Part shown: piece after piece, positions 34,253 to 36,910 of the stretch | Layout: every line of letters begins with the position of its first letter | Numbering within the stretch: position 1 is the stretch's first letter | Origin: an uncultured bacterium | GTDB taxonomy: Bacteria; DYJV01 | Assembly (NCBI GenBank): GCA_964543655.1 | Contig: CAZIZE010000085.1 | Location: forward strand, 1-61,942 | DNA length: 61,942 nt | Reading direction: 5' to 3' | Program-made: the position numbers and the translations under genes | Notes under the pieces: model-generated | The model's database searches: none | Told to the model about the DNA's origin: nothing | Seen by the model: only the letters and a program-made list of their open reading frames with translations

Positions 34253-35748
34253 TGGACACTTTTACTCTCTTTGCAATAAAAAATGAATTAAAGCAAAAAG
34301 TTTTATTTAAAAGAATAAATAAGATTTTTCAAAATAATAATCTTTTTACCTTTAAACTTTCCTCAGGAGAGAGTCTTTTTTTTGATTTTAATACCATTTT
34401 TCTTGCAAATCTCAAATTAGAGCACCCCTACTCTCCTCCTGCATTTTGTATGCTGCTGAGAAAATATATTTGTAATTCAATAATTACAGATTTAAAATTT
34501 TTTAAATTTTACAGAATAATTGAACTTGTTTTAGAAAAACGCAAAGAGATTTTTACTTTGCAGATAAATTTTGCAGGAAAAAGTAAAAATTTAATTTTGA
34601 GAAATAATTTAAAAATATTAGGAAGTTTTAGAAAATTTCAAGCTCCTGTTATAAAATCTTTTAAAAAGCTCTCAATTGAAGAATTTAGAGATTCTCTAAT
34701 CAAAGGCTCATTAGAAGGTTTTCCACCATTTGTAATAGATGAATTTATATTTTTAGTTAAAGAAGCAAATATTTATGAAGCTTATGAAAAGTATGTTAAT
34801 CTATTTAATTACCATATTGAATTTACACCAATTAAAGTTGGAAATAAATTTTATCCTTTCTATCTCAGCTATTTAAAGCATATGAACCATTGTAAAGTGT
34901 TTCCAAATTTTAATGAAATGTTAAAGTATCAATTTGAAAATCAGTTTTTAAATATTGAAAAAAATAAATTAATAAAGCTTGTGAAAAAGAGAATTAAAAA
35001 ACTTAAAAAAAGTATTGAGAAAATAGATAAAGAAATGGAACAGAAAAAAAATTATAATGAATATTTCAAATTTGGGGAATTATTAAAAGCAAATATTCAT
35101 TTGATTAAAAAAGGAGATGATTTTGCAGAAGTTATTGATTACTATGATGAAAATATGAAAAAAATTAAAATTCCTTTAAATAAAGCAAAATCACCTCATG
35201 ATAATGTAGAAAATTTTTTTAATCTTGGGAAAAAATATAAAAGAGGTATTGAAAAATTAGCAGACCGTAAAAAAGAGATTGAACAACAGCTTAATGCTCT
35301 CTATGAAGAGCTTTATTTTATAGAAAATTCAGATAAACCTGCTTTTAATAGAATTAGTTCTGAAAAAAAGAGTAAGATTAATAATGGTAAAGAGTTATCT
35401 CAAAAACCTTTTAAAGAGTTTGAATATAAAAATTATAAAATAATTGCTGGCAAATCAAGTAAGGGTAATGATTTCATTATTCGAAAATTTGGCAAACCTG
35501 ACTTTGTTTGGATGCATGCAAAAGATTTTCCTGGTTCCCATGTAATAATAATTGAGAAAGAAGAAAATATAAATATGGATGTTTTAGAATATGCTGGAAA
35601 AATAGCACTTGAAAACTCAAAAGCAAGGGAAAATAAAAAAGGGGAAGTAATTTATACAAAAATAAAATATTTACAAAAACCTAAAGGTGCACCATCTGGT
35701 TTTGTTACATTAAAAAAGTTTAAAACAATTTTTGTAAAATTATATTAA
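34252..35748 (+). CDS. NFACT family protein (RqcH/FbpA-like ribosome quality-control factor)
   Basis: [11 protein letters not shown], coiled coil with GELLKAN and [31 protein letters not shown]. Confidence 0.88.
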
Positions 35749-36527
35749 ATTCTTACATTAACACCATTTCTTCTTAAATATTCTTTGGTTTCTTTTATTG
35801 TATACTCTTTGTAGTGAAATATTGATGCAGCAAGTGCAGCACTGGCATCTGCTATTTTAAAAGCATCAAGAATATGCTCAAGATTTCCAACACCACCTGA
35901 AGCTATTACAGGTATTTTAAGGTTTTTAGCATAAAATTCTGTAAGTTCCAAATCGTAACCAGATTTGGTTCCATCTCTGTCCATACTGGTAAGCAGTATT
36001 TCTCCTGCTCCAAATTCTTCCATTTTAATAGCCCATTTGAGGGCATCTATACCTGTGGGGGTTCTTCCACCATGAATAAAAACCTCCCAGCTTATGCCTT
36101 TAAATTTTAAAAAATTTTCTTTATCAGTACGTTTAGCATCAACAGCTACAACAATACATTGGCTACCAAATCTTTCTGCTGCATCTCTCACAAAATCTGG
36201 TTTCTTAACAGCAGCAGTATTTATTGATACTTTATCAGCTCCTGCATTGAGGAGATTTCTAATATCATCAATTGTTCTAACTCCACCACCAACAGTAAAA
36301 GGCATGAAAATATTTTCAGCAGTTTTTCTAACAACATCAATAATAATATCTCTCTTTTCATGTGAAGCAGTAATGTCAAGAAACACAAGCTCATCAGCCC
36401 GTTGTCTGTCATACTCAATGGCTATTTCAACTGGATCTCCTGCATCTCTCAAACCAACAAAATTAACTCCTTTTACAACTCTTCCCTCTTTTACATCAAG
36501 GCATGGTATAATTCTTTTAGCAAGCAT
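35745..36527 (-). CDS. hisF: Imidazole glycerol phosphate synthase cyclase subunit
   Basis: [54 protein letters not shown]; GGAG SD before the ATG at 36527. Confidence 0.97.
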
Positions 36528-36537
36528 ATTAACTCCA

Positions 36538-36735
36538 TTATGCAAATCTTAAACTAAGTGCTGCAATTCCTGATAATTCCTGGTCAAAATCTTTTGCTTC
36601 ATAATGCTCCAATGATAATTTCTCAAGCTCAAGATCAAGAGAAATTTTTAAAGACTTTTCACCTGATTCAAGTGCTCTTTTGATAATAGAACAGGGAATT
36701 TGAATTGTCAATGTTTCATTTGTTCTTTTTACCAT
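36538..36735 (-). CDS. 65-aa hypothetical protein directly downstream of the Trp attenuator
   Basis: AAGGAG SD 7 nt before ATG 36735; [65 protein letters not shown]; stop 10 nt before hisF. Confidence 0.75.
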
Positions 36736-36763
36736 TTTTTTCTCCTTTTTGATTTTTTTAGGC

Positions 36764-36795
36764 AAAAAAAAAGCCGTGAGGTAAACCTCACGGCT
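36764..36795 (-). terminator. Attenuator terminator
   Basis: AGCCGTGAGG-TTTA-CCTCACGGCT perfect 10-bp stem followed by a long T tract, located upstream of the first gene. Confidence 0.92.
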
Positions 36796-36815
36796 AAATA
36801 TACCAATAGCGGTAT

Positions 36816-36875
36816 TCACCGCTGGTTTACCACACAACTTTTAATTTGCCACCACCAATAATTTCTTTTCATCAT
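36816..36875 (-). CDS. Tryptophan leader peptide MMKRNYWWWQIKSCVVNQR (19 aa; not in ORF track)
   Basis: ATG ATG AAA AGA AAT TAT TGG TGG TGG CAA ATT AAA AGT TGT GTG GTA AAC CAG CGG TGA; stop lies at the end of the antiterminator 5' arm. Confidence 0.85.
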   Translation of the reverse strand: MMKRNYWWWQIKSCVVNQR

Positions 36876-36881
36876 AACACT

Positions 36882-36910
36882 TAAATAACAGAGTATTTAT
36901 TTTAAGTCAA
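36882..36910 (-). promoter_or_regulatory. Sigma70-type promoter for the leader
   Basis: TTGACT-17 nt-TATTTA with extended TG; the leader ATG starts 7 nt after the -10 box. Confidence 0.65.

Follow-up and report, generated by a model that had tools for sequence, protein, structure and literature searches.

Organization of the locus

The window, i.e. the whole stretch of 61,942 nucleotides that was analysed, is a contig of an uncultured bacterium (CAZIZE010000085.1, assembly GCA_964543655.1). The locus lies on its minus strand, where re-reading of the sequence confirmed the coordinates of every element named in a preliminary description made from the sequence alone. A promoter is followed by a 19-codon Trp leader ORF, a set of alternative pairings, a terminator, a Shine-Dalgarno (SD) sequence, an ORF of 65 aa and hisF. 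The elements are listed below.

36910-36905, minus: -35 hexamer, TTGACT
36890-36882, minus: extended -10, TGT-TATTTA (TATTTA at 36887-36882)
36875-36816, minus: leader ORF, MMKRNYWWWQIKSCVVNQR followed by the stop, with an ATGATG start at 36875
36857-36849, minus: three consecutive Trp codons, TGGTGGTGG, the putative regulatory codons
36842-36818, minus: segment 2, AAAAGTTGTG-T-GGTAAACC-AG-CGGT, complementary to the whole terminator
36823-36808, minus: hairpin AGCGGT-GAAT-ACCGCT, predicted partner structure of the terminated fold
36815-36800, minus: alternative inner hairpin ATACC-GCTATT-GGTAT, predicted to cap the extended (antiterminated) fold
36795-36772, minus: stem-loop of the intrinsic terminator, AGCCGTGAGG-TTTA-CCTCACGGCT, with a T9 tract to 36764
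36748-36741, minus: SD region of the small ORF, AAGGAGA (GGAG at 36745-36742)
36735-36538, minus: 65-aa ORF (P0001), member of an orphan small-protein family
36711-36683, minus: promoter-like TTGACA-17-TATTAT inside the small ORF, candidate internal hisF promoter
36527-35745, minus: hisF, imidazole glycerol phosphate synthase cyclase subunit (PF00977, 4e-87)
34252-35748, convergent: NFACT gene

Profile searches agree with the preliminary description that the genes downstream of the leader are an undescribed small ORF and hisF, separated in the window by 10 nt. The latter is a true hisF, since its product scores 385.3 bits over residues 1-259 against TIGR00735, for an equivalog cut-off of 294.55. 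As described, hisF converges on the NFACT gene, overlapping its stop by 4 nt. A Pfam search of the 53 ORFs of the 62 kb bore out the reported absence of trp genes from the window, and returned no his gene besides hisF. Unlike that of the usual Trp attenuators, the cargo, by Pfam and NCBIfam an orphan ORF plus hisF, includes no gene for Trp synthesis, charging or transport, and nothing known connects it with tryptophan. Of the aromatic pathway the window contains aroC alone, at about 7329-8392 and without a leader.

At the Rfam gathering threshold a tRNA is the single match in the window, with no Trp leader (RF00513), T-box, riboswitch or leader family; at a permissive threshold the best match of the locus, to suhB/mmgR with E = 0.048, is due to the terminator alone. 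A T-box was rejected, as its features were looked for and none was seen, and so was TRAP-type control, as no (G/U)AG triplet repeat array is visible; neither has an Rfam match.

Promoter and start of the leader

The cassette was found in five to six diverged lineages, five with a full-length leader and one with a partial one, which form a small group of uncultured bacteria represented in several hydrothermal-vent assemblies. Studies of Axial Seamount and Brothers volcano were the source of the contigs, and the MAGs with the cassette are GCA_054003125.1, GCA_054009555.1, GCA_027013845.1 and GCA_027013445.1. The synteny check suggested in the preliminary description thus has a positive outcome for the WWW leader and the small ORF, with hisF behind them in some relatives. 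All lineages share the promoter geometry TTGACw-N14-TGn-TAnnnn-N6(7)-ATG. The -35 hexamer is TTGAC(A/T) in 5/5 lineages, always 17 nt before the -10, and the last three nucleotides of the 17-nt spacer of the window are TGT. The extended -10 reads TGn and then TAnnnn in every lineage, in the versions TGTTATTTA, TGTTAGGTT, TGCTAAAAT/G and TGATAGATA. A simple promoter scan demands T at position 6 of the -10, and for this reason does not list the leader promoter.

The AUGAUG start of the leader follows the extended -10 by 6-7 nt in every lineage (6 nt in the window). By sequence reading no SD precedes the leader ORF, whereas the neighbouring genes carry strong SDs. The leader ORF is therefore best read, from the promoter geometry, as probably leaderless.

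Terminator and alternative pairings

The terminator scan detected a stem of 10 pairs, 7 of them GC. The stem is maintained throughout: across 6 sequences, 60/60 cells pair, and one pair runs from AU through GU to GC. The predicted fold of the 151-nt leader has an energy of -48.2 kcal/mol (z = -5.4; 0/200 shuffles as stable). Within segment 2, part 2b is complementary to the 5' arm of the terminator, the middle to the loop, and part 2a to the 3' arm and the first T residues. The resulting duplex is predicted at -32.4 kcal/mol in the window, against -14.2 +/- 2.9 for shuffled sequences, with 0/1000 as good. In the five full-length leaders the duplex of the post-Trp segment and the terminator ranges from -25 to -35 kcal/mol, against -14 +/- 3 and with 0/1000 shuffles as good in each.

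The antiterminator originally drawn, in which GGTAAACC-AG-CGGT pairs with GCCG-TGA-GGTTTACC, exists, but it is only the inner part of a 27-nt inverted repeat (I1). The folding test proposed along with it gave a divided result: leader stability and complementarity to the terminator exceed shuffled controls, but the short 2:3 helix alone does not, as the 5' arm is tied up just as well in 3-28% of shuffles. This helix, which does not appear in the MFE fold of lineage L001, was therefore dropped as stand-alone evidence. Two global folds of the window leader are nearly isoenergetic (-32.4 and -30.6 kcal/mol). Because the 3' arm of the terminator, next to the U tract, is paired in the extended duplex as well, this duplex could itself act as a terminator unless a stalled ribosome blocks 2a. 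No double changes were found among the lineages for the extended duplex in the register of the window; covariation is almost absent because the lineages are too close.

The leader stop codon has a fixed position, always directly after CGG, so that CGG-U(GA/AG) belongs to strand 2b. In folding simulations with a ribosome mask placed at the stop codon, the terminator alone forms, at -18 to -22 kcal/mol; the stop codon is placed by the antiterminator arm as in classical attenuation, in accordance with the preliminary description. With the mask moved back to the last of the three Trp codons, and the 3' arm not yet emerged, segment 2 captures 7-9 of the 9 nt of the 5' arm in 4/5 lineages; the mask assumes a 13-nt footprint, under which 2a is only just uncovered.

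Two leader subtypes can be distinguished. The hairpin AGCGGT-GAAT-ACCGCT, seen when the terminator is forced to form, holds the leader stop TGA in its loop. It was initially described as a protector; it is present in the window, L001 and L094, which make up type A, but has no counterpart in the other subtype. The arms of the alternative inner hairpin are conserved and its loop varies in type A. In type B leaders the Trp codons take part in a classical 1:2 pairing, within a four-segment 1:2 / 2:3 / 3:4 layout, while the UGG run of type A leaders has no conserved partner.

Proposed mechanism

Tandem Trp codons, an intrinsic terminator and a stop codon placed to block the antiterminator are all present. 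As first described, the sequence shows the full set of parts expected of a ribosome-mediated Trp attenuator. The reading preferred here, to which a probability of about 0.65 is assigned, is that the locus is a ribosome-mediated Trp-codon transcription attenuator with a conserved cargo, a lineage-specific protein of 65-72 aa, and that hisF is co-transcribed behind this cargo in the lineage of the window.

Transcription would start from the extended -10 promoter, at or beside the A of the conserved AUGAUG, and the leader of 19-25 codons would be translated, probably as a leaderless mRNA. The segment formed by 2a and 2b, of about 25 nt, begins about 10 nt past the third UGG, and the last sense codon with the first base of the stop (CGG-U) lies within 2b. 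When Trp-tRNA is plentiful, a ribosome at the stop codon would cover segment 2, allowing the 10-bp terminator to form and producing an RNA of about 110 nt ending in U9. When Trp-tRNA is scarce, the ribosome would stall on the UGG codons, and the free 3' part of segment 2 may capture the emerging 5' arm and loop; the leading edge of the stalled ribosome would block 2a, otherwise a partner of the 3' arm. With no helix abutting the U tract, RNA polymerase would read through into the small ORF and hisF. If no ribosome is present, the 1:2 hairpin with the Trp codons would lead to termination in type B leaders, while type A leaders may adopt a similar pairing or else the extended duplex in full, the latter probably also terminating. 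Shortage of charged tRNATrp would thus induce the small protein, and hisF probably has its own promoter too. In short, low tryptophan probably switches on an undescribed small protein.

Selection on the leader and alternative explanations

The three Trp codons are invariant in all lineages. The sequence TGGTGGTGG is expected 0.12 times per window and was seen twice, the second copy being formed by Gly codons inside hisF. The ATGATG start and the NYWWW block are invariant across the five full-length leader lineages, while the residues flanking WWW vary freely. A general attenuator responding to translation speed or stress, or a constitutive partial terminator setting a low expression of the small ORF, would be compatible with a cargo devoid of recognisable Trp function, and WWW would be slow under many stresses; attenuators in which a uORF senses overall ribosome slowing are known, e.g. 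ermC and bmrCD (PMC2965389, PMC4191407). Three straight, invariant copies of a single Trp codon between free flanks are, instead, the signature of an amino-acid-specific attenuator (PMC1262725), and make a general sensor or a constitutive partial terminator unlikely.

The Trp-specific attenuator is further sustained by the pattern of changes in the ORF, which keeps its frame and its CGG-stop ending. The N and Y codons before WWW undergo synonymous changes only (AAT/AAC, TAT/TAC). The pre-Trp lengths are 18, 27, 30, 30 and 33 nt and the post-Trp ones 30 or 33 nt, every indel being a multiple of 3. Together with the fixed distance from ATGATG to the -10, these frame-keeping indels and synonymous changes argue for leaderless translation. 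The leader anatomy is evidently conserved under selection in the relatives. The same data bear on the still less likely explanation that the ORF is untranslated and that UGGUGGUGG, with the downstream segments, works as pure RNA, whether as a folded 5' UTR, as a binding site for a protein or another RNA, or as a terminated, trans-acting sRNA of about 110 nt. The lack of an SD before the ORF and the pairing of the UGG run with segment 2 in type B leaders would fit such an RNA, and trans-acting sRNAs derived from attenuators are known, e.g. rnTrpL (PMC6614838); against it stand the coding pattern just described, the lack of an Rfam match and of a TRAP-type (G/U)AG array, and the fact that the type A UGG run has no conserved partner.

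Translation of the leader might also matter through its product, if NYWWW and the following residues formed an arrest peptide of TnaC type, responding in the exit tunnel to free tryptophan or some other ligand rather than to tRNA charging. TnaC acts through Rho. The N-Y codons change only synonymously and the two residues are thereby preserved, which gives a hint of selection on the peptide. The C-terminal half is variable and not kept as a peptide, however: it tracks the RNA pairing and ends in Arg-stop, with no conserved Pro-stop, and the locus has an intrinsic terminator within a fully classical layout of alternative pairings. Membership in the TnaC class failed on these grounds, and an arrest peptide appears quite improbable here.

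A misjoin during assembly, or a chance rearrangement in the recent past, would have placed a trp-operon leader before unrelated genes in an arrangement without function. This possibility had been considered in the preliminary description and would fit the absence of trp genes nearby, but is effectively refuted by the recurrence of the cassette in five or six lineages, by an independent contig (L081) with a junction identical to that of the window, by the recovery of the L001-type cassette from three or more samples and four or more assemblies, and by the monophyly of the cassette-bearing hisF genes.

The small protein family

The small ORF has conserved coding features and a strong SD, an AGGAG 6-9 nt before its ATG in all lineages. 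A profile search of 1.84 billion representatives defines a family of only six members, 65-72 aa long: this search brought one added member, P0126, along with two spurious matches to repeat proteins. Scanning metagenomes with the alignment of the small protein returned a single contig, identical to the window. In the alignment N- and C-terminal blocks are conserved, while the middle is variable and contains in-frame indels.

No family match was found in Pfam or NCBIfam, and the sequence profile gave only a chance-level match in PDB, to a fimbrial chaperone. The AlphaFold2 model, based on a 5-sequence alignment, has a pLDDT of 66, and a Foldseek search against PDB found nothing below E = 2.6. 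The motif LTIxIP...G.K.L.I is the only lead toward AbrB/MazE/SpoVT; assignment to this swapped-hairpin domain (PF04014) was unsupported, with one of five members matching at E = 0.089 and no Foldseek match at E < 1. The type A proteins P0001, P0122 and P0125 have one Cys in the IPCSII block, P0123 has one in the variable middle (DSCEN), and P0124 and P0126 have none. Identity with anti-TRAP was rejected, as there is neither a Zn-binding Cys motif nor a sequence match in PDB.

A more specific proposal, with the odds clearly against it, is that the 65-72-aa protein is a dedicated, trans-acting effector of Trp starvation, possibly binding DNA in the way of a small AbrB/MazE-like protein or inhibiting a Trp repressor or enzyme. 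The leaderless WWW attenuator, reading tRNATrp charging, would be its sole input. The protein would represent a counterpart, evolved independently among uncultured vent bacteria, of the anti-TRAP circuit of B. subtilis, with additional transcription supplied to histidine synthesis as well.

Coupling of hisF to the leader

The leader had been proposed to control both the small ORF and hisF. The small ORF is indeed its conserved partner, but hisF is not an obligate one. In one lineage (L088-L093) leader and small ORF are kept without hisF; in L103 and L086 the gap between small ORF and hisF widens to 70-171 nt; and in seven sister lineages hisF occurs alone. On this comparison of sequences, the leader belongs to the small ORF and not to hisF, which follows behind.

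The promoter-like site inside the small ORF has 11/12 matches, and in the four lineages where small ORF and hisF are tightly coupled its hexamers do not vary. It provides a weak lead to an internal hisF promoter, because the site is coding and 11/12 matches are common by chance, about 5 being expected per window. Since hisF is absent or spaced in some lineages and this site exists, the cross-regulation of histidine synthesis by tryptophan suggested in the preliminary description is at most an add-on, and is the least secure part of the interpretation.

In the aromatic supraoperon of B. subtilis, hisC lies downstream of trpEDCFBA, under the control of TRAP, and also serves Tyr and Phe synthesis. 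It offers a precedent for a his-named gene under a Trp-responsive attenuator, whereas for the hisF described here no function in aromatic metabolism is known, and the leader does not always go with it.

Relation to known systems

Leader-peptide attenuators have been described mostly in Proteobacteria and Actinobacteria, before genes for the amino acid that is sensed, with few exceptions (PMC2965389, PMC1262725). The closest systems are E. coli trpL (RF00513) and the trp and trpS attenuators of Corynebacterium and Streptomyces (PMC1262725), in which the short ORF likewise has tandem UGG codons, two or three in number. With these classical Trp attenuators the locus has in common a stop codon in or beside the predicted antiterminator strand, pairings predicted to exclude each other, and a terminator that is rich in GC and followed by a U tract. 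The locus differs from them in the lack of an SD and of an Rfam match, in an antiterminator strand complementary to both terminator arms, and in its cargo, an orphan small protein (plus hisF) in place of trp biosynthesis, trpS or Trp transport.

Leaderless sensory sORFs acting in attenuation are an established precedent (bioRxiv 10.1101/834739). In the mycobacterial polycysteine 'ribulon', as probably at the present locus, the sensory sORF is located right at the transcription start, with neither a 5' UTR nor an SD before it, and in both systems it contains a run of codons for a single amino acid (bioRxiv 10.1101/834739). The mycobacterial sORFs, from Actinobacteria, sense Cys and mainly unmask the SD of the next gene (bioRxiv 10.1101/834739), whereas the vent locus has an intrinsic terminator and Trp codons in an AT-rich host, with a leaderless start deduced from promoter geometry.

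A similar logic is found in the B. subtilis rtpA (anti-TRAP) operon, in which a shortage of charged tRNATrp is sensed in the operon's own leader and leads to a very small trans-acting protein rather than to enzymes (PMC10327191, with Chen & Yanofsky 2003/2004 cited there). That leader combines a T-box with a translational leader peptide, and anti-TRAP is a Zn-binding, Cys-rich protein of 53 aa (PMC10327191); the small protein found here has no such motifs and no detectable similarity to it. In Sinorhizobium, rnTrpL and peTrpL provide a precedent for a terminated RNA and a leader peptide acting in trans (PMC6614838, PMC7298713), an action also raised in the preliminary description. Nothing at the vent locus speaks for it, and the peptide is conserved only at NYWWW.

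The proposed mechanism is of a known kind, and what is new is the orphan small-protein cargo. As the sensor is intact and conserved, with selection evidently acting on it, and the cargo has no recognisable fold, the attenuator labels the function of the protein as one presumably needed during a shortage of charged tRNATrp; so specific a clue is rare among orphan small proteins. The locus also provides a compact example of a probably leaderless sensory ORF outside Actinobacteria. In addition, an antiterminator strand matching both terminator arms predicts three states, corresponding to no ribosome, a stalled ribosome and a terminating one.

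Organization of the locus

The locus is real and conserved, and is best explained, with a probability of about 0.65 for the mechanism, by a ribosome-mediated attenuator based on Trp codons, which is probably leaderless and controls an orphan small protein. The underlying mechanism is already known; the locus is a new variant of it and not a new kind of system. All elements listed in the preliminary description were found on the minus strand at the positions assigned to them, and are reported here together with a promoter-like sequence inside the small ORF.

Features of the locus
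36910-36905, minus strand: -35 TTGACT, read in the sequence, 17 nt before the -10
36887-36882, minus strand: -10 TATTTA, read in the sequence
36875-36816, minus strand: leader ORF MMKRNYWWWQIKSCVVNQR and stop, start ATGATG
36857-36849, minus strand: Trp codons TGGTGGTGG
36823-36808, minus strand: hairpin AGCGGT-GAAT-ACCGCT
36795-36764, minus strand: 10-bp terminator and T9 tract (terminator scan)
36745-36742, minus strand: SD GGAG of the small ORF
36735-36538, minus strand: 65-aa ORF
36711-36683: promoter-like TTGACA-17-TATTAT inside the small ORF, best promoter match in a 3-kb scan
36527-35745, minus strand: hisF, beginning ten bases past the 65-aa ORF

The last gene is a genuine hisF (TIGR00735 score 385 bits, cut-off 294.6), whose 3' end lies 4 nt within the convergent NFACT gene. 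Pfam analysis of the 53 ORFs of the window revealed no other his gene and, in agreement with the earlier reading, no trp gene; aroC, 28 kb away, is the sole aromatic-pathway gene detected, and it is preceded by neither a leader ORF nor a terminator. The TTG start listed for aroC (7271) overlaps a divergent aminotransferase gene, and its true start is likely the ATG at 7329. The Trp codon run TGGTGGTGG is expected 0.12 times per window, and its sole second copy corresponds to Gly codons within hisF. The leader RNA fold is far more stable than shuffled sequences (z = -5.4), and Rfam has no match to the leader region.

Distribution of the cassette and relation to hisF

Related loci were collected by hisF-based searches of the GTDB representative genomes and of a collection of 5.8 billion proteins, and by an additional small-protein profile search. 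The cassette, made up of promoter, WWW leader, terminator, SD and small ORF, is present in the window and the identical locus L081, in L001 and L098-L102, in L094-L096, in L083 and L084, and in L088-L093; in L103 the leader is partial, the contig being cut, and in L086 the small ORF is kept and the upstream part is cut off. Leader, small ORF and hisF recur together in several of these lineages. The L001-type cassette derives from at least three samples and four assembly sources, which excludes a misjoin; the rearrangement initially put forward as an alternative is rejected. One contig of this type (L098) is labelled as hydrothermal-vent metagenome, and the remaining sample codes point to vent studies. 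In public gene calls, a 63-aa 'gene' runs across the leader region of L001-type contigs (L098, 2737-2928), and entry P0129 is a 77-aa, N-terminally extended small protein; both are probably mis-calls arising from the unannotated attenuator.

The five hisF genes that come with the cassette group together as a single clade in a neighbour-joining tree of hisF. Leader and small ORF are absent upstream of hisF in seven neighbouring lineages (L109, L104, L107, L082, L087, L002 and L003; hisF identity 82-87%), where the upstream region is ordinary and short. The closest named hisF genes, from Geobacter and Nitrospirota, show at most 75% identity. A promoter-like TTGACTTTTC(T/C)AATTTTTTACATTATACGG upstream of hisF is common to the cassette-less L107 (770-990) and L104 (600-630), and is separated from the hisF SD by a ~230-nt insertion in L107.

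The leader had been described as controlling both the small gene and hisF. The pairing of leader and small ORF proved invariant, but hisF is variably spaced: the window, L001, L094 and L084 have gaps of 10-15 nt, the gap of L103 is 70 nt, and that of L086, which contains an insertion, is 171 nt. In L088-L093 hisF is absent altogether, and a cation-efflux gene lies 478 nt beyond the cassette. The leader and the small ORF thus make up the invariant unit, and hisF is a lineage-specific passenger. Some lineages, that of the window among them, co-transcribe it with the unit. Since hisF is not constant behind the unit, the proposed cross-regulation of histidine synthesis is weakened. In the same gap, L086 (181-351) contains ~100 nt more than L103 (332-401), with the direct repeat TATATAATAT at the ends, and this extra sequence looks like a small insertion element.

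The hexamers of the promoter-like TTGACA-17-TATTAT are invariant in four tightly coupled lineages, and third positions in the spacer vary. The element may give hisF Trp-independent expression, a weak case because about five 11/12 matches per window are expected by chance and because the element lies within coding sequence.

Probable translation of the leader ORF

Five full-length leader peptides were obtained: MMKRNYWWWQIKSCVVNQR (window), MMIKNYKNNYWWWRLKSCEVNLR, MMRKMYKNYWWWKLKSCEVNQR, MMLRINSLTNYWWWHIFFKSGMRLR and MMIKNNLTNYWWWHFNKELEVHLR. All start with ATGATG and end with CGG-stop; the stretches preceding the Trp codons (18, 30, 27, 33 and 30 nt) and following them (30 or 33 nt) are in every case divisible by three in length, and N-Y-W-W-W never varies, all changes in the N and Y codons being synonymous (AAT/AAC, TAT/TAC). 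These features argue for translation of the leader. The conserved CGG-stop ending is accounted for at the RNA level, since CGGU pairs with GCCG of the terminator 5' arm in every lineage (helix 2, 24/24 cells paired).

The leader ORF has no SD; those of the small ORF and hisF are strong. Every lineage carries TTGAC(A/T)-N14-TGn-TAnnnn followed, after 6 nt (7 in one), by ATG. With such a predicted extended -10 promoter, transcription would begin with the A of AUG or right next to it. From this geometry we infer that the leader ORF is probably leaderless, a situation with a precedent in mycobacteria (bioRxiv 10.1101/834739).

Asn-Tyr always precedes the Trp run (36849-36863 in the window, and in the relatives), and His follows it in the leaders of L084 and L088 (type B). 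Queuosine-modified tRNAs decode the codons of Asn, Tyr and His alike, and the window also contains folE2 and a PTPS/QueD-like gene (14844-15996); this may be a coincidence.

Predicted alternative RNA structures

All 60 cells of the terminator pairing are paired, one pair being AU in three sequences, GU in two and GC in one. Starting ~10 nt past the last UGG, the leader complements the terminator region over its full extent (5' arm, loop, 3' arm and first U residues), as also seen in the inverted-repeat listing (I1). The best duplexes between this stretch (segment 2) and the terminator range from -24.9 to -34.8 kcal/mol across five lineages, against -13.4 to -14.6 +/- 3 kcal/mol for dinucleotide shuffles of the post-Trp segment; 0 of 1000 shuffles were as good as the observed duplex in any lineage. 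The antiterminator proposed earlier, GGTAAACC-AG-CGGT with GCCG-TGA-GGTTTACC, is present as the inner part of this longer duplex; taken by itself, the short helix does not outperform shuffles. Covariation in the leader RNA is almost absent, the lineages being closely related.

When the ribosome was placed at the stop codon in masked folds, only the terminator formed. When the third UGG occupied the A site and the 3' arm was not yet out, 7-9 of the 9 nt of the 5' arm were captured in four of five lineages. In ribosome-free folds, type B leaders form a long 1:2 hairpin including the Trp codons, plus the terminator, which is the classical four-segment attenuator design. In type A leaders (window, L001, L094) the hairpin GCGGU-GAAU-ACCGC, whose loop contains the stop codon, accompanies the terminated fold, and an extended fold is capped by AUACC...GGUAU. 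The comparison of terminator and antiterminator suggested for the window leader gave two near-isoenergetic global folds (-32.4 vs -30.6 kcal/mol), as expected for a kinetic switch.

In the extended duplex, the helix between the proximal part of segment 2 (2a) and the 3' arm lies directly against the U tract. A helix abutting a U tract could itself terminate transcription, so that antitermination would require a stalled ribosome blocking 2a. A ribosome stalled at the Trp codons may do so: between the third UGG and the G/C part of 2a there are 10 nt in every type A leader, and L088 has 12 nt, a spacing that would fit such blocking, exactly at the edge of the ribosome footprint.

On the minus strand, the U tract and GCCU past the terminator (36760-36771) are complementary to the SD region AGGAGAAAAAAA of the small ORF (36735-36746; inverted repeat I3, 10/12 plus one G-U). 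L094 looks similar, L001 does not. In read-through transcripts such pairing could provide an additional translational mask, or it may be due to chance, the sequence being A/U-rich.

The small protein

Among 1.84 billion cluster representatives, the family comprises six members of 65-72 aa (P0001, the protein of the window, and P0122-P0126), which share the blocks LTIxIP..I(I/V)......L.I.L.(L/F)E and SG(V/I)(A/E)ALS(L/M)RF, separated by an acidic, variable stretch in which indels keep the frame; Trp is absent from all six. No Pfam, NCBIfam or PDB relative was found, MazE/AbrB matching one member with E = 0.089, and the AF2 model is of low confidence, with no fold match. The upstream sensor is the only functional clue. 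It brings to mind anti-TRAP, also a small protein, whose inducer is uncharged tRNATrp (PMC10327191); the likeness is in logic only and not in sequence.

A peroxiredoxin gene elsewhere in the window

The peroxiredoxin gene at 17744-18352 (minus strand) has an in-frame TGA (18206-18208) exactly at the peroxidatic Cys (FYPADFTFV*PTE), with the small hairpin CUUGCUGCAGUUGCAAG 13 nt downstream. It probably codes for a PrxU-like selenocysteine peroxiredoxin and carries a bacterial SECIS. In the ORF listing the gene had been split, showing the 111-aa C-terminal part alone.
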